Shown here in pieces: positions 3,228 to 58,204 of a stretch of 64,000 bases of DNA. Each line of letters starts with the position of its first letter. Within the stretch, counting starts at the first letter, position 1. The position numbers and the translations under genes are program-made. This DNA comes from Patescibacteria group bacterium (GTDB lineage: Bacteria; Patescibacteriota; Patescibacteriia; UBA2591; JAQUPP01): the NCBI GenBank assembly GCA_028716665.1, contig JAQUPP010000001.1, positions 128,467 through 192,466 of the forward strand, given 5' to 3'. A model generated the notes under the pieces. That model was not told the origin of the DNA, made no database searches, and saw only the letters and a program-made list of their open reading frames with translations.

Positions 3228-3284
3228 ATTTTAGCTTTTTAGGAATTAGCTTATTAGCTTTTATAAATTCTCAAGTTAGTTTTT

Positions 3285-7945: not shown

Positions 7946-8293
7946 TTAGTTCCTCTTTAGCCCTATGAAAGAGAGACGCAATTCTCTGCCCCCTACTTTT
8001 TCTGCTATAAAAAATCTACCTTCTCCGTCAAGAATCATTAAGGTATATTCTACTACCCATTTTTGACCACTACCGCTGTCATAATCTGCATAGTAGCTAG
8101 AAATATCTTTAATAGTGATTTCCATCTTCCCGCTAATCGTTAATACAAGAGAGTCTTTGTCTATTCTTTCTATTTTATTGAACTTATCAATCCCAATTTT
8201 TTCTAACTTCTCCAAAATTTCTTTTATTTTTATATCACTTAATTTGATCGGTTCTTTTGCCATTTTCTCCTCCTTTTTAAAGAACAATTTCAT
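7946..8293 (-). CDS. Small paralog of the same family, apparently frameshifted. A conserved K/E-rich tail is encoded in another frame down to 7827.
   Basis: MAKEPIKLSD...MILDGEGRFF is family-like. After a T6 run (plus-strand A6 at 8009-8014) the conserved ...GQRIASLFHRAKEEL...EQLIKKLEV tail continues in a different frame and ends at a stop at 7827-7829. Confidence 0.5.
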   Translation of the reverse strand: MKLFFKKEEKMAKEPIKLSDIKIKEILEKLEKIGIDKFNKIERIDKDSLVLTISGKMEITIKDISSYYADYDSGSGQKWVVEYTLMILDGEGRFFIAEKVGGRELRLSFIGLKRN

Positions 8294-8312
8294 TTAATTG
8301 TCTTATATTATC

Positions 8313-8341
8313 ACTATAGCACAAATTTAATTTTTGTCAAG
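8313..8341 (-). promoter_or_regulatory. Sigma-70-like promoter for the small-paralog/kinase operon (minus-strand TTGACA ... TTGTGCTATAGT)
   Basis: The reverse complement reads TTGACA followed by ~17 nt and then an extended -10 TGTGcTATAGT. Confidence 0.45.
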
Positions 8342-8353
8342 TATTCTCGACAT
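8334..8353. promoter_or_regulatory. Candidate operator TTGTCAAG-N5-TCGACA. A similar site lies upstream of the second TrmB paralog.
   Basis: It is an imperfect inverted repeat matching 25972-25990. Confidence 0.35.
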
Positions 8354-8373
8354 AAAGAGAGTGGATAACTAAT

Positions 8374-8401
8374 TTGACATATTTTATGGGTATTATATAA
8401 T
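8374..8401 (+). promoter_or_regulatory. Sigma-70-like promoter TTGACA-N16-TATAAT upstream of the TrmB-like regulator
   Basis: There are exact consensus hexamers, and the -10 lies ~35 nt upstream of the ATG at 8437. Confidence 0.55.
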
Positions 8402-8436
8402 AAAAGTGTCGTCGAAAAATATCAACAAATACGCTT

Positions 8437-9171
8437 ATGCAAATAGAAAAAGTTTTAGAACAATTTAATCTGAATAAAAAAGAAATTAGTGTCTATCTCA
8501 CCTGTTTGGAGCTGGGTCCTTCTACGGCCGGAGTGGTCGCCCAGAAAGCAGGCATAAAAAGAACCAGCGCTTATGATATTTTGGGAGACCTGATAAAAGT
8601 CGGGCTTATTACTCATACTATAAAAAATAATAAAAAATATTTTTTAGCCGAAGATCCGGAAATACTTAAAAAAATTCTTCACGAAAAAGAGAGAGCATTA
8701 GAAGAAGTTCTCCCTCAATTGAAATCTATTTATAATATCCCGGGCATAAAACCAAAAACAAAATTTTATGAGGGAGTTTCCGGGGCAAGAAACATATTTA
8801 GAGAAACATTATCTTGCCGAAAAAAAGAAGCTATGGCCATTCTTCCGTCAGTAGACATTTATGATCTTATCGGAGTGGATTTTGCCAAAGATTATGTCGC
8901 CGCTCGAACGAAATTAAAAATAAAAAGCAGAACCCTGCGCGTTAAGACACGCGAGTCAGAAGAAAAATATTTTTTTCAACACAAAGAACAACTTCGGGAG
9001 ATGCGATATCTTCCAAAGTCAATCACTTTTTATTCAACTATTCTAATTTGGGATGATAAAGTGGCAATTATTACTTCCAAAAAAGAAAGTTTCAGTTTTT
9101 TAATCGAAAGTCAAGAATTCAGCCAAACCATGAAAGCATTATTTGAAATGCTTTGGCTGCAATCAAAATAA
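8437..9171 (+). CDS. TrmB-family HTH transcriptional regulator
   Basis: The N-terminal winged helix (LTCLELGPSTAGVVAQKAGIKRTSAYDILGDLIKVGL) is typical of TrmB, and the 244-aa length fits. It is a paralog of 25201-25944. Confidence 0.65.
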   Translation: MQIEKVLEQFNLNKKEISVYLTCLELGPSTAGVVAQKAGIKRTSAYDILGDLIKVGLITHTIKNNKKYFLAEDPEILKKILHEKERALEEVLPQLKSIYNIPGIKPKTKFYEGVSGARNIFRETLSCRKKEAMAILPSVDIYDLIGVDFAKDYVAARTKLKIKSRTLRVKTRESEEKYFFQHKEQLREMRYLPKSITFYSTILIWDDKVAIITSKKESFSFLIESQEFSQTMKALFEMLWLQSK

Positions 9172-29196: not shown

Positions 29197-29257
29197 AATT
29201 TTCAATTTTCAATAAAATTAACTCGTTAACTCTTTAATCCGTTAACTCAAAAATAAA

Positions 29258-29896: not shown

Positions 29897-29899
29897 AAA

Positions 29900-29998
29900 A
29901 TAGTTTACAGTTTTTAGTTAATGGTTATAGTTGGTCGGTTGCTAGTTTAAAACCAAAAACCAGTAAACTAAAACTAAAGACTAATAACCAAAAACCAT
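29900..29998. repeat. AT-rich imperfect palindrome (agtttac.../...gtaaact words) between deoC and comM
   Basis: tagtttacagtttttagttaatggttatagttggt pairs with accagtaaactaaaactaaagactaataaccaaaaacca. Confidence 0.35.
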
Positions 29999-29999
29999 T

Positions 30000-31559: not shown

Positions 31560-31622
31560 GGCAAGCTAATAAGTTGATAAGCTTACTAAGTAAATAAGTT
31601 AATAAGTAAATAAATAACGAAG

Positions 31623-47510: not shown

Positions 47511-47600
47511 TTATAGCTTATTAGCTTGTAGCTTCTTGGCTTTTTAGAAAATAAAAAAGAGTAGGTCTATTACAGACCTACTCGGCGAGAAATAAATTTC

Positions 47601-48485: not shown

Positions 48486-48582
48486 TTGTCCCCCTTTGAG
48501 TTAAACGTTATTGTCTAACTGTATAATACTCTATCATATTTTTTGCTTTTTGTCAAGATGTTATAATAAGTTAATTTTTATG

Positions 48583-51465
<2,883 letters not shown>

Positions 51466-51473
51466 TTTGAATT

Positions 51474-53375
51474 ATGATTGATGATATCGTATTAAAATTT
51501 AAAGAGTTGCCGTTAGAAGTTCAAGACAAGCTATCTTCGATAGAAATTTTAGGAATTTTAGATAAAATAGAAAAGCAATATTCTCAACGCCAGGTTTCTT
51601 TGGCCGAGATACTGATGAGGATCGCAATTAAAGAGATAGATATTAATAATTTGACAGAGATTTTGGAGAAAGAATATCTTTTGGAAAGGGAAAAGGCGAG
51701 AGAGATCAGTATTGCTTTGAAAGAAAAAATTTCGTGGTTAGCATTAGGTTTTGACATAGAAAAAAAAGAATTATTGGAAGAAAAAGCAGAATCGAAATAT
51801 TTTCAATTACCAGGGAAAATTAGAAATGTAATTTTTGCTCCGGAAAATACGGAAATTTTTAACCAACTTGCCGAAAAATATAATTTTGACATTAATGCCA
51901 TAGTAATAAGGCTGGTAGTTGGAGATATTACATTTAATGATTTGGATAAAATATTAGTAACGGATTATCATCTCCTTGTATCTGCGTTAAGGGATGTTGA
52001 AGAAAATTTGAGTAAAATTTTGAAACCGATTATTCAAATGCTAGAAATGCAGAAACCGGGAGAAATCAATACAGAAGAGCTTGATAGAGAAATTGAAAAA
52101 TTAAAAGAGAATATTCCTACTCTTGCTGCAAAACTTGATATTAATCAGGCGGCGGACAATGCGATTACCAAGGTTGGCCTGACTTTCCCAGATGAAACAA
52201 TAGAAAAACGTTTTAAAAATGTAGTCATTTCTTTTTTAAGAGAAGTGCGCGGAGAGATTGAAACAAGAATTGTTTTAAAAAGACCACAAAAAATCGGAGG
52301 CGTGGAATTGGACGAAAAAATAGTTGACAAGGTGATGGATATTTTGAAACAAGAAAAGCCGATGATTAAAATTGAACCAATGGGTAATATTCCTCAGATT
52401 GAACTGGCCGAAGGACTAAAACAGCCGGAAGAAACAATTCAAAAATTTACTCGCATGGAAAAACCCGAAATAAAATCAGTTTCTTTGTTGTCTAAAATTG
52501 AAGAAGAAAAATTACTTCCTCAACCTGAAGAAGTAAAAGAGAAATTATTAAAAGAAAAATTTGAGCAAGAACCGTTGGTAGCACCGATTTTAGAAAAACC
52601 GGCTCCGGTTATTGAAAAGCCCAAGCCGATAATTCCGGAAATTAAAATTGTCAAAGAAGAACCAAAATTGGCCATGCCGGAATTTAAACCGATTATTCCG
52701 CCTGTTTTGGAAAAGAAAATTGAAGAGAAAACAGCGCCAAATTTATTTACCGCGGTTTCGGAAGAACCGAAAACTAAAGTTTCCGGACCGGAAGAAATTA
52801 CTGATGTTTTAAAAGAAATTGATCAATTACCGCCGGGAGATACCCCATTTGTTCTTGATGAAGAGGCAGAAGACAAATTTAAATTACCGGTTAGAGAATT
52901 GCCAAAAGAGGAATTGAAACCAATTATTGAAGAGCCAAAAGTTGAAGAAATAAAAAAAGAAATTAAACCTCAACCTCAGGCGGAAATTTTTATTCACCGG
53001 CCGCCTCGCGAGCCGGCAATGGCTAAAATGGAAGAAATTAAGGTTACTCCTCGTGTTTCCGGCCCGATTGAAGAGTTACAAGGTGCCACTCTTCAGGATT
53101 TTCGAAGATGGGGCAGCGCTGAACAAGCTGTTCAAAAAATAAAAGAAAAAATAGATTTATTGGGGGAAGAATCTTTGGTTAAAAAATCGGAAGGAATCAA
53201 GGCATGGAAAGAATCAGAAATTAATAAATTATATTTGGATATCGGCACGGAATCAATTGATAAGGGCATCTCAGTCAGTGAAGTAATCATTTTAAGACAA
53301 AAAGAAAATCGTAAAACTTTAAACGAAGAAGAATTTGACAAAGTGGTGGAATTGAACCAGAACCTCCGTTTCTGA
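51474..53375 (+). CDS. Hypothetical Glu/Lys/Pro-rich protein with EKP/IIP repeats
   Basis: It is 633 aa long and includes the repetitive stretch EKPAPVIEKPKPIIPEIK. Confidence 0.45.
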   Translation: MIDDIVLKFKELPLEVQDKLSSIEILGILDKIEKQYSQRQVSLAEILMRIAIKEIDINNLTEILEKEYLLEREKAREISIALKEKISWLALGFDIEKKELLEEKAESKYFQLPGKIRNVIFAPENTEIFNQLAEKYNFDINAIVIRLVVGDITFNDLDKILVTDYHLLVSALRDVEENLSKILKPIIQMLEMQKPGEINTEELDREIEKLKENIPTLAAKLDINQAADNAITKVGLTFPDETIEKRFKNVVISFLREVRGEIETRIVLKRPQKIGGVELDEKIVDKVMDILKQEKPMIKIEPMGNIPQIELAEGLKQPEETIQKFTRMEKPEIKSVSLLSKIEEEKLLPQPEEVKEKLLKEKFEQEPLVAPILEKPAPVIEKPKPIIPEIKIVKEEPKLAMPEFKPIIPPVLEKKIEEKTAPNLFTAVSEEPKTKVSGPEEITDVLKEIDQLPPGDTPFVLDEEAEDKFKLPVRELPKEELKPIIEEPKVEEIKKEIKPQPQAEIFIHRPPREPAMAKMEEIKVTPRVSGPIEELQGATLQDFRRWGSAEQAVQKIKEKIDLLGEESLVKKSEGIKAWKESEINKLYLDIGTESIDKGISVSEVIILRQKENRKTLNEEEFDKVVELNQNLRF

Positions 53376-53398
53376 TAATTTAAAATTGAAAAATCAAA

Positions 53399-53770
53399 AT
53401 GGAAAATGACAGTGTAAATTTTAAAAATGAATTCAAAAAACGCCTCTATAACTGGGTTTTAAGGTTAATCAAGTTTATAGACAAGCTTCCCAAAGACTCC
53501 GTATGCAATGTCTTGGGAAAACAGCTTCTAAGAAGTGGAACAAGCATTTTGGCAAATTATATTGAGGCAAACTCAGCCAGCTCAAAGAAAGATTTTATCA
53601 ATTTTTTCACTCATTCTTTAAAATCAGCCAATGAATCTAAGGTTTGGCTGACATTATTAAGAGATACTGACAAAGGAGATAAAAATGAATTGCAGTGGTC
53701 ATTAAAAGAACTGATAGAAATAGCCAATATTCTGGCTTCTAGTATTTTAACTCTCAAGGGTAAGAAATAA
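53399..53770 (+). CDS. Four-helix-bundle protein of the 23S-rRNA-IVS / DGR-Avd family
   Basis: Family-like motifs are present (...SILANYIEANSASSKKDFINFF.HSLKSANESKVWL). The length is 123 aa. Confidence 0.6.
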   Translation: MENDSVNFKNEFKKRLYNWVLRLIKFIDKLPKDSVCNVLGKQLLRSGTSILANYIEANSASSKKDFINFFTHSLKSANESKVWLTLLRDTDKGDKNELQWSLKELIEIANILASSILTLKGKK

Positions 53771-53828
53771 TTTTGACATTTTGAATTGTAATTTTAATTT
53801 TTGATATTTACATTTTGCATTTTTTATC
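53771..53828 (+). promoter_or_regulatory. Cassette 3' element (ttttgacattttgaattgtaattttaatttttgatatttacatttt) upstream of the VirB3-like ORF
   Basis: It recurs at 55086-55139 and 57716-57748, each directly upstream of a start codon. Confidence 0.45.
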
Positions 53829-54260
53829 ATGCAATTCATCGTTCCACAATTTATTGATATTGAACCGAAAATAATCGGGCAGATTACGCCACGGCAATTT
53901 TTGACTATTATTATCACGACTATCACTATTGGTGTTTGCTATAAATTATTTGATTTTGCTTTATTCATTTTGGTCGCGATTATCACCGCGTCAGTGGGAG
54001 TATCTCTCGCCTTTTTGAAAGTTAATGGCCGGCCGATATATTATTTTCTCGTAAATGTTTTTCAAACTTTTCGCAGGCCCAAAATAAGAGTTTGGCGCAA
54101 AGAATTTATTAGAATTGTTGAAAAAAATTTCAGAGATAAAGAAAAAACAGCCAGAACAATGCAGGAATTTGTTCCCCGTCCCCCGCTTTCTTCCACTCGG
54201 CTTTCTCAAGTTGCCCTATTGGTTGATACGGGAGGGAAATATACCGAAGACAATGAATAA
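53829..54260 (+). CDS. Small two-TM membrane protein, candidate VirB3-like
   Basis: It is 143 aa long with a hydrophobic hairpin, and it lies immediately upstream of the VirB4-like ATPase. Confidence 0.3.
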   Translation: MQFIVPQFIDIEPKIIGQITPRQFLTIIITTITIGVCYKLFDFALFILVAIITASVGVSLAFLKVNGRPIYYFLVNVFQTFRRPKIRVWRKEFIRIVEKNFRDKEKTARTMQEFVPRPPLSSTRLSQVALLVDTGGKYTEDNE

Positions 54261-54331
54261 TAGCTTTTTAGCTTGTAGCTTATTAGCTTTTTAGGGCTAA
54301 GAAGCTAATTCCTAATATCCTAATTTTAAAT

Positions 54332-54997
54332 ATGAATAATCAAAAACCTCAATTTCCTTCAACGCAAAAATATTTAAACATTTCCGAAATAAGAAATGAT
54401 TGCGTTATTTTGCAAGACGGCACTTTAAGGGCTGTTCTTTTGGTTTCTTCAATTAATTTTTCCTTGAAATCAGAAGAAGAGCAAAATGCCGTGATTCAAG
54501 CTTATGTTCAATTTTTAAATTCTTTGGATTTTCCGATTCAAATCGTTATTCAATCCAGGCCGTTTAACATCAATCCTTATTTGACTCAATTGGAAGAATT
54601 AAAAAGAACCCAAACCAATGATTTGTTAAAAGCGCAAATGGCTGATTATATTGATTTCACCAGAGAATTAATCCAAATGGGCGAAATAATGAGTAAACGT
54701 TTTTATATAGTGGTGCCTTACAATCCTTTAGGCGACAAAAAACGAAGTTTCGCGTCCATTATGACTGATGTTTTAAGCGCTGCTTCGGTTGTTAAGCTTA
54801 AAAGAGAAAAATTTGAAAAATACAGAGAAATTCTTTTCAGGAGAATGGATAACGTTTTGTCAAATCTTTCAAGTATGGGCATTAAAGCAATATCACTCGA
54901 CACTCAAAGTTTGATTGAACTTTTCTATAATACTTATAATCCATCCAGCGCTCAGAATCAAAAATTAGTTGAAATAAAAGATTTAAGAGTTGAATAG
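54332..54997 (+). CDS. N-terminal domain of a VirB4-like ATPase, encoded as a separate ORF
   Basis: The pattern CVILQDGTLRAVLLVSSINFSLKSEEEQNAVIQAYVQFLNSL.FPIQIVIQSRP is typical of Gram-positive-type VirB4 N-termini. It is separated from the ATPase core by a cassette remnant. Confidence 0.4.
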   Translation: MNNQKPQFPSTQKYLNISEIRNDCVILQDGTLRAVLLVSSINFSLKSEEEQNAVIQAYVQFLNSLDFPIQIVIQSRPFNINPYLTQLEELKRTQTNDLLKAQMADYIDFTRELIQMGEIMSKRFYIVVPYNPLGDKKRSFASIMTDVLSAASVVKLKREKFEKYREILFRRMDNVLSNLSSMGIKAISLDTQSLIELFYNTYNPSSAQNQKLVEIKDLRVE

Positions 54998-55085
54998 TAA
55001 TAAATCAAAATTAAAAAATCAAAATGCAAAATGACAGTGTAAAGTTTAAAACTAATAAAAGTCAAAAAGTATTTTATAAATTCAA
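54998..55085 (+). repeat. Internally deleted copy of the 4HB cassette 5' end (MQNDSVKFK... 25-codon remnant)
   Basis: aaaaatcaaaatgcaaaatgacagtgtaaa matches 53381-53415. Confidence 0.6.
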
Positions 55086-55117
55086 TAATTTTACATTTTA
55101 ATTTGTCATTTTAATCT

Positions 55118-57076
55118 TTGATATTTACATTTTCTATTATGCCAATACGACCATCGGCTTTAAACGAGCCAACAACAATTGAAAAAGTCCAAAGTCCGCA
55201 AGAAATAAAAATTCGAGAAACCAAAAGAGATACAGAGGCGAAAGAGATTTTGAAATCCGAAGAGGCCTATCAAAGAGGGACTATCACCGTCAGAGACTTG
55301 GTTGCTCCGGCGGCTTTAAGAGTAGACGCGAAATATTTGCAATTGGGTGATCAATATTTAAGAACCATTTTTGTCACCACCTTTCCCCGTTATGTTATGG
55401 TGGGTTGGTTTTCACCGATAATTCATCTTAACGCACCTTTGGATATTGCGATGTTTTTCTATCCGGTTGAGAGTAAAGAAGTTTTAAAACAATTATTAAA
55501 GAAGGTTGGTAATTTGGAAGTCGAGATTCAAGCTGATCGGGAAAAAACATTGCCACGAGACCCGGTTAAAGAAACCGCGTTGCAAGACATTGAAAAATTA
55601 AGAGATGATTTAACTACCGGGACTGAACATTTTTTCCAACTTGCTTTATATGTGACTATTTATGCCAATGATTTAAAAGCGTTGGATCTTCTGACCGAAA
55701 GAGTGGAAACGATATTTGGCGGTAAAATGGTTTATACTCGCCGTGTTCTTTATCAATCCGAACAAGGATTTAACTCCACTTTGCCTTTGGCTAACGATGA
55801 AATAATGACTACGGTCAATATGAGCTCCTCTCCTTGCGCTTCAAGTTTTCCTTTTATTTCCGCAGATCTTACTTCGGATAGCGGCGTGCTTTATGGGATT
55901 AACCGTCATAATAACAGTTTGATTTTATTCGACAGATTTTCCATGCCGAATGCGAACTTCACTGTTTTTGCCACCAGCGGTAGCGGTAAAAGTTATTTTG
56001 CCAAATTGGAAGTTTTGCGTTCTTTAATGCTTGGCACTGACGTGATTATTATTGATCCGGAAAGAGAATATAAGCATCTTTGCGATGCAGTGGGCGGAAC
56101 TTATGTTAATATTTCTCTAACTTCAGAAAGTAAAATCAATCCTTTTGATTTGCCGCGTTCATCAAGTCAGGATGTAAAAACCGGTGATTTGATTCGTTCC
56201 GCGGTTATTACTTTGAAAGGATTATTGAAAATTTGTATTGGCAAACCGGATGAAAAGGGGAATCTCAGTTTTACGCCGGAAGAAGATTCATTGATTGATC
56301 GCGCTTTAATTGAATCCTACGCTAAAAAAGATATTGTTCCGGGTTGCGATTTAAGTCAGATGGAAATGCCGATTATGGGTGATTTGCAGGAAATTTTGGA
56401 AGGAATGGAAGGCGGCAATAATTTAGCCGAGCGTCTTAAAAAATATACTCAAGGAACGTTCAGTGGATTTTTAAATAACCCGACCAATGTTCAAATGGAT
56501 AATAAATTGGTGATTTTTTCCGTCAGGGATTTGGAAGACGAATTAAGACCGATGGCCATTTATACGATTGTGAATTATATTTGGAATGTTGTCCGTTCGC
56601 AAATGAAAAAAAGAATTTTAATGATTGATGAAGCTTGGTGGCTGCTGCAATATGAAGATTCGGCGAAATTCATTTATGCTTTGGTGAAACGCTGCCGCAA
56701 ATATTATCTGGGCGTGACCACCATCAGTCAAGATGTGGCGGATTTCTTGAATTCTCCTTATGGAAAAGCCATTGTTACCAACTCGGCCATGCAATTGCTT
56801 TTAAAACAATCTCCGGCTGCCATTGACTTGATCGCCAAGACTTTTATGTTGACTGAAGGAGAAAAATATTTATTACTTGAATGTGGTGTTGGCGACGGCA
56901 TATTCTTCGCCGGCAATAAACACGCGGCGATTAAAGTGGTTGCTTCTTACTCGGAAGATCAGTTAATCACTTCTGATCCGCGCCAAATTTTGGAAATTGA
57001 ACAAGCCAAAAGAGATTTTGATAAAAGTTTAGATAAGGGCTCGTCAGAAAGTATCGGCGATATGCCCATTGAATAA
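55118..57076 (+). CDS. VirB4/TraC/TrbE-like conjugation-type ATPase core
   Basis: Walker A FATSGSGKSYFAK, Walker B ILMIDEAWWLL and the C-terminal KYYLGVTTISQDVAD are present. The length is 652 aa. Confidence 0.7.
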   Translation: MIFTFSIMPIRPSALNEPTTIEKVQSPQEIKIRETKRDTEAKEILKSEEAYQRGTITVRDLVAPAALRVDAKYLQLGDQYLRTIFVTTFPRYVMVGWFSPIIHLNAPLDIAMFFYPVESKEVLKQLLKKVGNLEVEIQADREKTLPRDPVKETALQDIEKLRDDLTTGTEHFFQLALYVTIYANDLKALDLLTERVETIFGGKMVYTRRVLYQSEQGFNSTLPLANDEIMTTVNMSSSPCASSFPFISADLTSDSGVLYGINRHNNSLILFDRFSMPNANFTVFATSGSGKSYFAKLEVLRSLMLGTDVIIIDPEREYKHLCDAVGGTYVNISLTSESKINPFDLPRSSSQDVKTGDLIRSAVITLKGLLKICIGKPDEKGNLSFTPEEDSLIDRALIESYAKKDIVPGCDLSQMEMPIMGDLQEILEGMEGGNNLAERLKKYTQGTFSGFLNNPTNVQMDNKLVIFSVRDLEDELRPMAIYTIVNYIWNVVRSQMKKRILMIDEAWWLLQYEDSAKFIYALVKRCRKYYLGVTTISQDVADFLNSPYGKAIVTNSAMQLLLKQSPAAIDLIAKTFMLTEGEKYLLLECGVGDGIFFAGNKHAAIKVVASYSEDQLITSDPRQILEIEQAKRDFDKSLDKGSSESIGDMPIE

Positions 57077-57090
57077 AATATTTTAATCAT

Positions 57091-57651
57091 ATGAAAAAAG
57101 TTATATTAATTATTGTTATTTTAGTTTTAATCGGCGGCACGGTTTGGTTTTTGATGTCAAAAAAAAGCCAACCAATTTTGGAAAATAAAAATATTATAAA
57201 TCAATTGGTTGATCAAGAAAACACGGTTAACCAAAATCAGGTTGAAACAGAAACATTGGTTCCAACTGCGGAAGATTTATTAAAAATAGATTTAACAAAT
57301 CAGGCACGGTCTTTTATTGAACGTTATGGGAGTTACTCTACGGACAGTAATTATGAAAATTTGCAAGAATTATTGCCGAAAATGGCTCAGCCGCTTAGAA
57401 CAGAAACAGAATCAAGAATTCAAAAAGGAGTGAAAAAAGACATGGCTGTTAATGATTTTTTCGGGCTGACTACTAAAATAATTTCCATCAATTTGGATAA
57501 ATTCGTCCCGGATTCGCAAGCGATTTTTACCGCGGAAATTCAAGAGCAAGCCGCGCGCTTAGGTCAAACAGATATTTTATATAAAACAGTAAAATTGACT
57601 TTTATAAAATCAGCCGATGAATGGAAAGTGGGAGAGATAGAGATTCATTAA
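57091..57651 (+). CDS. Bitopic membrane protein, possible VirB8-like (NTF2-like) component
   Basis: An N-terminal TM segment is followed by a ~150-aa periplasmic domain. The call rests on architecture only. Confidence 0.3.
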   Translation: MKKVILIIVILVLIGGTVWFLMSKKSQPILENKNIINQLVDQENTVNQNQVETETLVPTAEDLLKIDLTNQARSFIERYGSYSTDSNYENLQELLPKMAQPLRTETESRIQKGVKKDMAVNDFFGLTTKIISINLDKFVPDSQAIFTAEIQEQAARLGQTDILYKTVKLTFIKSADEWKVGEIEIH

Positions 57652-57748
57652 TAAATCAAAAATTAAAAATCAAAATGAAAAATGACAATGATAAAAATTT
57701 AAAATTAAAAATAAGAAATATTTTTGACATTTTAAATTATAGTAATTT
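57652..57748 (+). repeat. Second internally deleted cassette copy (MKNDNDKNLK... remnant plus ttttgacattttaaatt 3' element)
   Basis: aaaaatcaaaatgaaaaatgacaatg is followed by atttttgacattttaaattatag. Confidence 0.55.
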
Positions 57749-58204
57749 ATGGTTAGTGATATTGAAGAACAAGAAACAGAACAATCAATCGCCGTGAGAT
57801 TAAAAGCGGAAAGAGCCGAGGATGTGGTGAAATCAGATGATTCGGGAACGTCTTTCACCGGGAAAACCAAAGAATTGAAAGATGCGGCTCAGCGCCTTAA
57901 AACTGTTTATCGGATAATTAACGGAGCTTCGGCGATAACCGTAGTTGGTTTGATTGTCACCTTTCTATTGATGAATGCTCAATTGATTTTCGGTAATTTA
58001 TTAAAAGTCAAATTTGTGCCGGCTTTGGAAATATGGGAAATTATTATTTTGGGTATTATTGATGTCATTATTTTAACTGTCTTATTTTGTTTAATAGTGC
58101 TTTCAACCATCAGCGTAGTGGCCATCACTGATCCCGGGGAACTTTTTAAACTGCTATGGAGTAGTGGTTTGCAAATAATTAAAAACGCATTTTCACCATC
58201 GTAA
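57749..58204 (+). CDS. Three-TM membrane protein (hypothetical)
   Basis: It is 151 aa long, with an acidic N-terminus followed by three hydrophobic helices. Confidence 0.4.
   Translation: MVSDIEEQETEQSIAVRLKAERAEDVVKSDDSGTSFTGKTKELKDAAQRLKTVYRIINGASAITVVGLIVTFLLMNAQLIFGNLLKVKFVPALEIWEIIILGIIDVIILTVLFCLIVLSTISVVAITDPGELFKLLWSSGLQIIKNAFSPS

Follow-up and report, generated by a model that had tools for sequence, protein, structure and literature searches.

Other lineages encode the VirB4 ATPase in one gene; at this locus of a Patescibacteria genome its N-terminal part and its ATPase core lie in two successive ORFs with a repeat-bearing spacer between them. The question that this layout raises is whether an intact ATPase gene was interrupted by an insertion or whether two older genes had a foreign element placed between them. 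We analyzed the stretch of 64,000 nucleotides containing the locus (hereafter the window) together with related loci. The initial annotation of the sequence had proposed that the ATPase was either split by a 120-bp insert carrying a decayed copy of a four-helix-bundle (4HB) cassette, or had been given an internal promoter and start by it. The evidence presented below favours another reading, in which we have considerable confidence: the locus is most probably a normal Patescibacteria T4SS core operon (PrgI/VirB3-like, TrsD, VirB4) with two ancestral genes, the junction of which was later filled by a hairpin element. The features concerned are listed in the table.

Features of the operon and of its hairpin elements, in positions of the window.
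Feature	Position	Strand	Remarks
Full 4HB cassette	53376..53828	+	Heptamer arms flanking a 123-aa four-helix-bundle ORF; 5' arm ~53376-53430 (tandem AAAATNN heptamers, contains the start codon), ORF 53399-53770, 3' arm 53771-53828 (NNATTTT heptamers, extends up to the ATG of the gene that follows)
PrgI/VirB3-like gene, 143 aa	53829..54260	+	PF12666 PrgI, E 5.7e-5, just below cut-off
Hairpin element of another heptamer family (AGCTTNT), 71 nt	54261..54331	+	PrgI-like/TrsD junction
TrsD homologue, 221 aa	54332..54997	+	Corresponds to N-terminal segment of intact VirB4
ORF-less heptamer-arm hairpin element	54998..55138	+	5' arm 55000-55051, loop 55052-55083, 3' arm 55084-55133
VirB4 (TrsE-like) ATPase, 645 aa	55139..57076	+	True start ATG 55139
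Third, more diverged ORF-less copy of the spacer family	57652..57748	+	Between 186-aa and 151-aa genes; blastn matches extend over 57651-57763

Both parts of the ATPase recognized in the initial annotation, the VirB4 N-terminal domain and the ATPase core, are present and match VirB4 models. The long ORF has P-loop_TraG, AAA_10 and DUF87 domain matches and a match to PF19044 (E 1.5e-28), exceeds the curated threshold of NF045971 (conju_CD1110), a VirB4 model of CD1110 type (343.7 vs 325 bits), and matches the VirB4 C-terminal domain 4AG5 (E 2.6e-44), and a Walker A motif (GSGKS) is visible in its translation. The 221-aa ORF gave a weak TraC_F_IV match; further matches were to N-terminal portions of VirB4 models and to the NCBIfam TrsD model NF041427 (positions 21-144 of 201, E 5.9e-10), in the last case with 39.3 bits against a curated cut-off of 200. 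Using BLASTP, we found 27% identity over 118 aa between this product and TrsD of the Staphylococcus aureus plasmid pSK41 (E 1e-9), and 25% identity over 554 aa between the core and pSK41 TrsE (E 3e-41). These comparisons support homology of the 221-aa product to the TrsD/TraD family as a distant relative, and do not support membership at the equivalog level. AlphaFold modelled TrsD with low confidence (pLDDT 59), the top Foldseek matches of the model, to R388 TrwK/VirB4, being weak (E 0.017) and suggestive at most, and PDB searches with the TrsD sequence, alone or as a 26-sequence profile, returned nothing useful. In pSK41, the counterpart by position of the PrgI/VirB3-like gene is a 135-aa gene that precedes trsD.

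When aligned to intact VirB4 models of NCBIfam, as the initial annotation had suggested, the two ORFs fell side by side: TrsD and the core cover positions 2-152 and 176-730 of the CD1110 model (752 positions), 5-183 and 243-729 of VirB4_CagE (792 positions), and 103-264 and 281-892 of VirB4_plasma, respectively. TrsD and VirB4 are thus collinear with intact VirB4, with no segment missing. The long ORF extends over 652 aa (55118-57076) if read from a TTG and over 645 aa if read from the ATG at 55139. The latter start (MPIRPSALNE...) is that of the deposited protein P0121 and is homologous in relatives, in which the frame is already closed by stop codons 3-15 nt further upstream. The comparison identifies ATG 55139, and not TTG 55118, as the real start of VirB4. 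With this start the spacer measures 141 nt (54998-55138) instead of 120 nt and the tttgatatttacatttt motif becomes wholly intergenic; the insert described initially is indeed inserted sequence of the 4HB-cassette element family, but its length has to be corrected.

Several lines of evidence bear on the age of the two-gene layout. Stand-alone proteins of 200-235 aa make up all of the 120 best homologues of the 221-aa ORF; for the VirB4 core the 120 best are likewise stand-alone, with 606-718 aa except for one truncated entry. A stop codon separates the two genes in all 77 species-level Patescibacteria loci that hold both, the gap having a median of 10 nt and not exceeding 25 nt in 56 of them. 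The same order of a VirB3-like gene, a gene for about 220 aa and a VirB4 gene for about 650 aa occurs in pSK41/pGO1 (TrsD/TraD and TrsE, MPF-FATA subclass). In pSK41, TrsD (227 aa) and TrsE (672 aa, a DUF87 protein) are separated by 14 nt, compared with 221 and 645 aa in the window, where the gap is 141 nt because of the insertion of the element. Relatives free of the insert have the same stop codon at the end of TrsD, and the same start codon and N-terminus in VirB4, as the window. The adjacency of TrsD and VirB4 in Patescibacteria is already known, 2,272 TrsD homologues having been reported there, 1,664 of them adjoining virB4 (PMC12102498, 2025).

Judged from these comparisons, the two-gene TrsD/VirB4 state is ancestral, and both genes appear intact and together equivalent to the single VirB4 of other lineages. 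As the initial annotation had it, a polypeptide of its own corresponds here to the N-terminal part of VirB4, but the idea that the insert split the ATPase is contradicted by the homologue lengths, by the uniform two-gene loci, by pSK41 and by the published survey. It had also been reasoned that an N-domain always encoded separately and followed by the same spacer would indicate a split ancestral gene; the N-domain has its own gene throughout, but conservation does not extend to the spacer, and this combination points to an ancestral split and a recent insert. Recognizing this keeps the pair from being mis-annotated: neither the 221-aa gene nor the 645-aa gene is a pseudogene or a piece of a broken VirB4.

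The spacer element occupies the entire interval from the TrsD stop to the VirB4 start, leaving both genes intact, and shares its arms with the full 4HB cassette located 1.2 kb upstream. Its 5' arm is 90% identical over 52 nt to 53375-53426 (E 8e-15) and its 3' arm 90% identical over 51 nt to 53766-53816 (E 3e-13), a likeness well in excess of what chance would give in the window and with no clear extension beyond the arms. The earlier observation that an element within the spacer also precedes other genes was borne out: TTTGATATTTACATTTT occurs exactly at 53800 and at 55117 (55117-55133, in the spacer 3' arm), and 11 matches with up to three mismatches were found in the window against 3.06 +/- 1.91 expected, a count that 0 of 100 shuffles reached. 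The 25-codon ORF previously read as a remnant of the 4HB gene is real (55024-55101) and starts within the 5' arm; its 'MQNDSVKFK' codons result from in-frame reading of the 7-base tandem repeats of the arm, so that they are by themselves no proof of a decayed gene. The spacer is predicted to fold into a hairpin of -19.9 kcal/mol (z -2.7), a value that 2 of 200 shuffled sequences matched. Within the family this hairpin ranks among the weaker ones (z -2.1 to -2.9). An Rfam search of the spacer region gave no match at E<=1. Sense and antisense folding energies were mixed, with no consistent asymmetry and no sign of RNA-specific G-U pairing. The spacer is best described as a later arrival, an ORF-less member of an A/U-rich hairpin family sharing the arms of the 4HB cassette.

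Other elements of this kind lie in the same region. The ORF of the full cassette encodes a 4HB protein (PF05635, E 3e-18) of the 23S-rRNA-IVS-protein family (TIGR02436, 82 bits vs a cut-off of 24), and its arms align with those of the cassettes in the related loci L026 and L040. The third copy is 81% identical to both ends of the 4HB cassette (blastn) and aligns in the same alignment (A2) as the spacer, and the 71-nt hairpin at the PrgI-like/TrsD junction has an MFE of -21.5 kcal/mol (z -5.0). Pfam scans of the other small ORFs in the window returned no further cassette genes.

A metagenomic survey of the family bears on how the spacer lost, or never had, an ORF. The 5'-arm motif occurred 133 times in 120 metagenome contigs, about 8 occurrences starting a 4HB ORF of 117-123 aa and 22 reading ATG-TAA. 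In metagenomes, ORF-less copies exceed 4HB-bearing ones by about 8:1 or more, and many of the ORF-less copies have unrelated loops with small GC hairpins. Among 41 ORF-less copies, 34 fold with z < -2 (median z -4.1), the outer helix spanning nearly the whole element; RNAalifold found no consensus pairs in these 41 copies and hence no covariation support, probably as a result of shifting repeat registers. One variable arm position, inspected by eye in a simple mirror register, pointed to mismatches and not to compensatory changes. The end of the 3' motif lies 5-12 nt (mode 12) ahead of the ATG of a long ORF in 34 of 79 cases. The spacer could have been a full 4HB cassette that decayed in situ, a serious possibility from which we nevertheless lean away. 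Alignment A2 places the spacer against both ends of the cassette with one large internal gap (about 330 nt absent), the same TrsD|VirB4 junction holds a full GxxExxY cassette in L004/L005 and an ORF-less one in L001/L003, and a 176-bp deletion within the ORF has been reported for a Coxiella intervening sequence (PMC4990558). Against such decay stand the restriction of the likeness to the heptamer arms and the excess of ORF-less copies with their many unrelated loops, and the ORF-less form may be the basic propagating one.

The arms of the spacer family also occur in ribosomal RNA. One related locus (L158) is a 23S rRNA gene (1373.6 bits) carrying two ORF-less elements with such arms, one of them in a helix loop at model positions 1203-1227. 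We take these positions to be helix 45, a classic site of intervening sequences (IVS), which in 23S rRNA are found in helix 9, 25 or 45. In Coxiella, the helix-45 IVS carries heptameric repeats in tandem ahead of its S23p (4HB) ORF, that ORF shows decay, including the deletion mentioned above, and excision by RNase III has been shown experimentally in Coxiella and other species (PMC4990558). The window family thus resembles the IVS of Coxiella burnetii, Leptospira and Salmonella in its long inverted-repeat stem, in the tandem heptameric repeats at the 5' side, in an optional S23p/four-helix-bundle ORF that may be decayed or absent, and in a sporadic distribution suggesting horizontal transfer. 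A difference is the location of the window copy, in the trsD-virB4 interval and not in rRNA, and RNase III excision is here only presumed. The window copy shares a sequence family with rRNA IVS members without itself being an rRNA IVS.

These observations suggest how the present arrangement could have come about. A short TrsD|VirB4 junction would have been filled by the 141-nt palindromic element, with (AAAATNN)n repeats in its 5' arm and complementary (NNATTTT)n repeats in its 3' arm. The element would be co-transcribed in the operon mRNA and form a long stem-loop rich in A and U, at whose base the UAG and the AUG may come close together. RNase III might then cut the stem-loop in the manner of rRNA intervening sequences, or the hairpin might simply be tolerated. 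The element itself would be selfish and rapidly turning over, and not part of the ATPase.

Comparison of genomes with a TrsD 73-95% identical to that of the window (in L208, TrsD ~75% and VirB4 77%) revealed six states of the TrsD|VirB4 junction. It is empty in L007 (4 nt), holds the ORF-less 4HB-arm element in the window, an ORF-less GxxExxY-arm element in L001/L003, the full GxxExxY cassette in L004/L005, an AGCT-family hairpin of the same family as the 71-nt element in L002/L006/L207, and an AATTTTC-family hairpin in L208. Other junctions of the operon are likewise polymorphic between empty and filled: L001 and L002 have an empty junction of 11 nt where the 71-nt hairpin lies, the junction of the third copy is reduced to an empty 25 nt in L004 and is occupied by a different family in L001 and L002, and the site of the 4HB cassette holds a GxxExxY/PDDEXK_3 cassette in L001-L003. 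No target-site duplication was seen at pairs of empty and filled junctions, and no transposase was found for the elements, whose ORF-bearing relatives encode 4HB, GxxExxY or GIY-YIG proteins. The insert in the spacer is, on this comparative evidence, apparently secondary and mobile.

The hairpin could alternatively be an RNA element of benefit to the host, tuning or uncoupling TrsD and VirB4 through RNase III cleavage, mRNA stabilization or attenuation. Every genome with a TrsD at least 84% identical to that of the window has some hairpin at this junction, albeit of differing families, and the hairpins span the whole gap and join stop to start. We nevertheless consider a host function unlikely, as 56 of the 77 species do without an insert, and the fillers show no sequence relationship and are replaced rapidly, a pattern more in keeping with invasion than with a conserved function; a scan for promoters and terminators found no terminator-like feature.

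An internal promoter in the 3' arm of the spacer, driving virB4 independently of trsD, is less probable still. A sigma-70-like match (TTGTCA-17-TACATT, 55103-55131) does exist, and at many loci the 3' motif keeps a narrow distance, mostly 5-12 nt, from the downstream ATG. However, the match is 9/12 in a region with 29 such matches against 18.7 +/- 4.6 expected, the scan being uninformative in AT-rich DNA; the -10 bases fall on the variable heptamer dinucleotide, the critical A at position 2 of the hexamer being replaced by G in many copies of the family; and the same arm is found within a gene for 23S rRNA, a setting in which a promoter would serve no purpose. Nor does the start codon come from the element, as the initial annotation had supposed, the ATG and the first VirB4 residues being ancestral. 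That an intact VirB4 was cut in two in this lineage by insertion of a cassette remnant is scarcely credible: the two ORFs are jointly collinear with intact models and the element sits exactly between them, yet two genes are found in 77/77 species-level loci with the junction empty (1-25 nt) in 56, the pair recurs in pSK41 and in published Patescibacteria, and the TrsD stop and the VirB4 start and N-terminus are identical in relatives without the insert.

Returning to the reading of a mobile element in an ancestral junction, we compared the elements with other short repeats. Neisseria Correia elements, ERIC and REP/BIME sequences are short, ORF-less, multi-copy hairpins within operons and polymorphic between strains, and Correia elements are RNase III substrates. 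The window elements are likewise short, ORF-less, hairpin-forming and multi-copy, and lie between the genes of operons. Their ends are imperfectly inverted. In contrast to MITE and REP sequences, no target-site duplication and no cognate transposase or RAYT were seen, their arms consist of tandem heptamers, and their ORF-bearing relatives carry 4HB, GxxExxY or GIY-YIG genes. We rejected an identification as MITEs, given the absence of visible duplications at empty/filled junctions and ORF-bearing relatives lacking a transposase. Cyanobacterial STRR sequences, reportedly described by Mazel et al. in 1990, are short intergenic tandem heptanucleotide repeats, and 4HB and GxxExxY genes likewise abound in the genomes that have them. 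In the literature on GxxExxY, PDDEXK_3, 23S_rRNA_IVP, Patescibacteria MITE/REP elements and STRR heptamers, we retrieved no description of such elements at gene junctions and nothing connecting STRR heptamers with the window elements.

We tentatively put forward a wider proposal, for all that we think it more probably wrong than right: heptamer-arm hairpins may form one class of mobile IVS-type cassettes in Patescibacteria, with several families, that extend beyond rRNA and routinely colonize the stop-to-start junctions of protein-coding operons, including an essential T4SS operon. If so, each family would have ORF-less forms and forms bearing a 4HB, GxxExxY/PDDEXK_3 or GIY-YIG gene, and the cassettes would turn over between strains still 95% identical in their flanking proteins. 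They would be an mRNA-embedded counterpart of rRNA IVS, RNase III would split polycistronic messages, and the element, not the host, would benefit from the small proteins that it encodes, through homing, maintenance or RNA binding, for instance.

The findings indicate that elements of the 23S-rRNA-IVS family also reside at gene junctions of protein-coding operons, alongside the poorly understood 4HB and GxxExxY genes, and that their gain, exchange and loss probably take very little evolutionary time. The junction elements offer a testable handle on these abundant orphan families and their hairpins, bear on how operons are expressed under such insertions in very small genomes, and could be used as strain-level markers in metagenomes.

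All 19 matches to ORF-bearing cassettes (about 15 of them independent) are co-oriented with the operon; the orientation of ORF-less copies is ambiguous because their arms mirror each other. The 4HB protein of the window is 80-84% identical to those of the L026 and L040 cassettes, at which loci VirB4 is 66-68%, TrsD 55-57% and PrgI 38-44% identical, and in L011 this pattern is reversed.

In the window, whose G+C content is 35.9% (low-GC) and whose matching deposited proteins carry Patescibacteria labels, the T4SS cluster is chromosomal and flanked by LeuRS/KsgA and RadA. The initial annotation proposed that a VirB4-like ATPase had been split into two ORFs by a cassette remnant. Both ORFs are present, but the ATPase was corrected to begin at ATG 55139 (645 aa, matching the deposited protein); relatives share the homologous ATG, with the frame closed just upstream. 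Because the ATPase starts there, the intervening spacer measures 141 nt instead of 120 bp. In NCBIfam profiles the two ORFs align collinearly with complementary segments of intact VirB4 models: the 221-aa and 645-aa ORFs cover positions 2-152 and 176-730 of the CD1110-type model (the latter passing the cut-off of 325 with 343.7 bits), 5-183 and 243-729 of VirB4_CagE, and 103-264 and 281-892 of the Mycoplasma-type model. The junction lacks no residues and, if anything, has a surplus on each side. The 221-aa ORF also matched the TrsD/TraD model (E 6e-10), although without reaching its curated cut-off.

Comparison with homologues indicates that TrsD and VirB4 are ancestrally two genes, a state already known. 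All of the top 120 database homologues found for the 221-aa ORF (at least 59% identity) are 200-235 aa long, and the best 120 of the ATPase core span 606-718 aa, one truncated entry excepted. A scan limited to a single genome for each species gave at least 587 related loci, 80 of which were retrieved; among the 77 carrying both genes none had an uninterrupted gene, a stop codon always lying between them, and the gap had a median of 10 nt (up to 25 nt in 56 loci, 60-200 nt in 14 and ~510 nt in two). This gene order is also seen in Staphylococcus aureus pSK41, where a 135-aa gene is followed by trsD (227 aa) and, 14 nt further on, by the gene for a 672-aa DUF87/TrsE protein; TrsD and TrsE are homologous to and collinear with the window proteins (E 1e-9 and 3e-41, respectively). 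Among the T4SS components found in Patescibacteria, TrsD has been reported to be the most abundant, with 1,664 of 2,272 homologues adjoining virB4; it is described as remotely homologous to the N-terminal part of VirB4, and a homologue is among the genes listed as essential in a cultivated strain (PMC12102498, 2025). Together, these homologue lengths, loci and precedents rule out the insert as the cause of the split. The N-terminal domain is thus consistently a separate gene, but the spacer is not conserved with it, as relatives differ at this junction. In one relative with proteins 95% identical to the window's (L001, 6775-8711), virB4 is called in two pieces (468 and 174 aa), which reflects either genuine disruption of the gene or an error in sequencing; it is intact in the otherwise near-identical L003.

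Features of the T4SS region and heptamer-repeat hairpins in the window
Feature	Position	Strand	Remarks
ORFs of 2740, 984 and 633 aa	39288-47510, 48511-53375		directly 5' of T4SS core genes
Four-helix-bundle (4HB) cassette	53376-53828		same arms as spacer
123-aa 4HB gene	53399-53770	+	PF05635, TIGR02436
PrgI/VirB3-like gene	53829-54260	+
AGCTTNT-heptamer hairpin (second family), 71 nt	54261-54331		between PrgI-like gene and TrsD; z -5.0
221-aa ORF (TrsD homologue)	54332-54997	+	NCBIfam VirB4 and TrsD/TraD models
Spacer, 141 nt	54998-55138	+	between 221-aa ORF and ATPase ORF
ATPase ORF, 645 aa	55139-57076	+	start ATG 55139
Two small genes, then T4SS-pilin-like gene	after 57076, within 53.4-59.5 kb	+
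Third, more diverged element copy	57651-57763
AGCTTNT family, further sites	3228-3284, 31560-31622, 47511-47600
Other intergenic heptamer-repeat hairpins	29897-29999 (z -3.4), 29197-29257		inside another co-directional gene run

The spacer is nevertheless related to the 4HB cassette, as first noted: it matches both cassette ends at 90% (55000-55051 against 53375-53426 over 52 nt, E 8e-15; 55084-55133 against 53766-53816 over 51 nt, E 3e-13), and the 25-codon ORF was found at 55024-55101. It fills the gap from TrsD stop to VirB4 start exactly, leaving both genes intact, and its hairpin (dG -19.9 kcal/mol, z -2.7) lies at the weak end of its family. The arms of this family are degenerate tandem heptamers: a 5' arm, (AAAATNN)n, which in ORF-bearing copies contains the ATG and first ~10 codons, and a 3' arm, (NNATTTT)n, terminating in ...TGTCATTTTNATTTTTGATATTTACATTTT. 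In 34 of 79 motif occurrences the 3' arm ends 5-12 nt before the ATG of the next gene (mode 12 nt). The repeat TTTGATATTTACATTTT, described as an element preceding other genes, is real, with two exact copies in the window and 11 matches at up to three mismatches (3.1 expected; 0 of 100 shuffles reached 11); since the 3' arm ends just before the next ATG, however, it is the outer part of that arm. We found no good support for the suggestion that the cassette acts as an internal promoter. Heptamer-repeat hairpins are not confined to the T4SS operon, as copies lie in another gene run.

A metagenome scan with the 5'-arm core retrieved at least 133 occurrences in at least 120 contigs. Among the matches listed, 22 read ATG-TAA and only ~8 begin a 4HB ORF of 117-123 aa, the rest being ORF-less, so that the commonest form is an ORF-less hairpin like that of the window. 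When 41 ORF-less copies were folded, the median z was -4.1 (z < -2 in 34) and the outer helix covered nearly the whole element. In five metagenome loci (L092, L161, L145, L124 and L122) a long downstream ORF (212-557 aa) continues the frame of the element ATG (MQND...); host genes may sometimes obtain their start codon and N-terminus from the arm, or gene callers may be misled.

The spacer element is a recent, replaceable occupant of the TrsD-VirB4 junction, whose content differs among relatives with TrsD 73-95% identical to the window's, even where TrsD and VirB4 are both 95% identical. Two loci (L004 and L005) carry a full GxxExxY/PDDEXK_3 cassette (125-aa gene, 478 nt), L001 and L003 its two ends but not its gene (108 nt), L002, L006 and L207 a 121-nt hairpin of the AGCT (AGCTTNT) family, and L208 (TrsD ~75%, VirB4 77% identical) a 103-nt hairpin from yet another family; in L007 (73%) the junction is empty (4 nt). 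The spacer may be a 4HB cassette that lost its gene in place, and such loss does occur, as the full and gene-less GxxExxY cassettes of L004 and L001 illustrate; alternatively, it may have arrived already ORF-less. The remaining operon junctions either measure 11-25 nt or are occupied along their full length by a hairpin element, and genomes differ: that between the PrgI-like gene and TrsD is 11 nt in L001 and L002, which lack the window's hairpin. At the site 5' of the PrgI-like gene lie the 4HB cassette in the window, a GxxExxY cassette in L001-L003 and small GIY-YIG genes in L004 (1819-1932) and L208 (2276-2545), one a 37-aa fragment, making GIY-YIG a third cassette gene family there. Cassette genes were co-oriented with the operon in all 19 hits found (~15 independent).

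The window 4HB protein is 80-84% identical to those of cassettes in L026 and L040, where VirB4 is 66-68%, TrsD 55-57% and PrgI only 38-44% identical; in L011 the relation is reversed. Combined with the near-identical non-coding arms of the distant hosts L040 and L058, this discordance indicates element mobility or horizontal transfer. No transposition signature was found at empty/filled junction pairs. In L040 (2655-8600) four 4HB cassettes lie within 8.6 kb of the T4SS operon, one at the TrsD-VirB4 junction, and in another (~8095-8595) the 3' arm encloses a small GC-rich hairpin.

Elements with spacer-family arms also occur in rRNA. Metagenome contig Ga0210015_1040241 (L158) is a 23S rRNA gene (RF02541, 1373.6 bits) with two ORF-less copies, at ~650-780 and ~1590-1710. 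One of them sits in the loop of a hairpin at model positions 1203-1227, which we interpret as helix 45, where intervening sequences classically lie; the other is a 171-nt insert near model position 1895. An unrelated 80-nt AT-rich insert is found at model position ~1763. The helix-45 intervening sequence of Coxiella has been described as selfish and as containing inverted repeats; tandem heptameric repeats lie just 5' of its S23p (4HB-family) ORF, which shows decay (a 176-bp deletion among the examples), and RNase III excises the sequence (PMC4990558). ORFs for 23S_rRNA_IVP and GIY-YIG proteins are on record from non-intron insertions in Patescibacteria rRNA genes (PMC11270868). Given the shared arms in L158 and the Coxiella likeness, the spacer belongs to the intervening-sequence family but lies at an mRNA junction rather than in rRNA.

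The spacer would be transcribed as part of the operon and, once folded, its stem base would juxtapose UAG (54995-54997) and AUG (55139); the MFE outer helix pairs nucleotides beside both codons. By analogy with its rRNA relatives, it might then be cut by RNase III, or merely tolerated. Scans of the spacer found no terminator-like feature and no Rfam family. The consensus of the 41 ORF-less copies showed no covariation and folding of the element no strand asymmetry, so RNA-level selection is not supported. We found no account in the open-access literature of such elements at protein-coding junctions in Patescibacteria. The spacer is a known kind of element (intervening-sequence-type or MITE-like palindromic repeat) in an apparently undescribed niche. 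More broadly, intervening-sequence-type cassettes may colonise operon junctions as a class.

Many typical Patescibacteria T4SS loci belong to TPA MAG records that bear the title 'uncultured Gammaproteobacteria bacterium', probably wrongly. The 2740-, 984- and 633-aa proteins encoded upstream of the T4SS core genes had no Pfam match and possibly belong to the T4SS as secreted or surface proteins.
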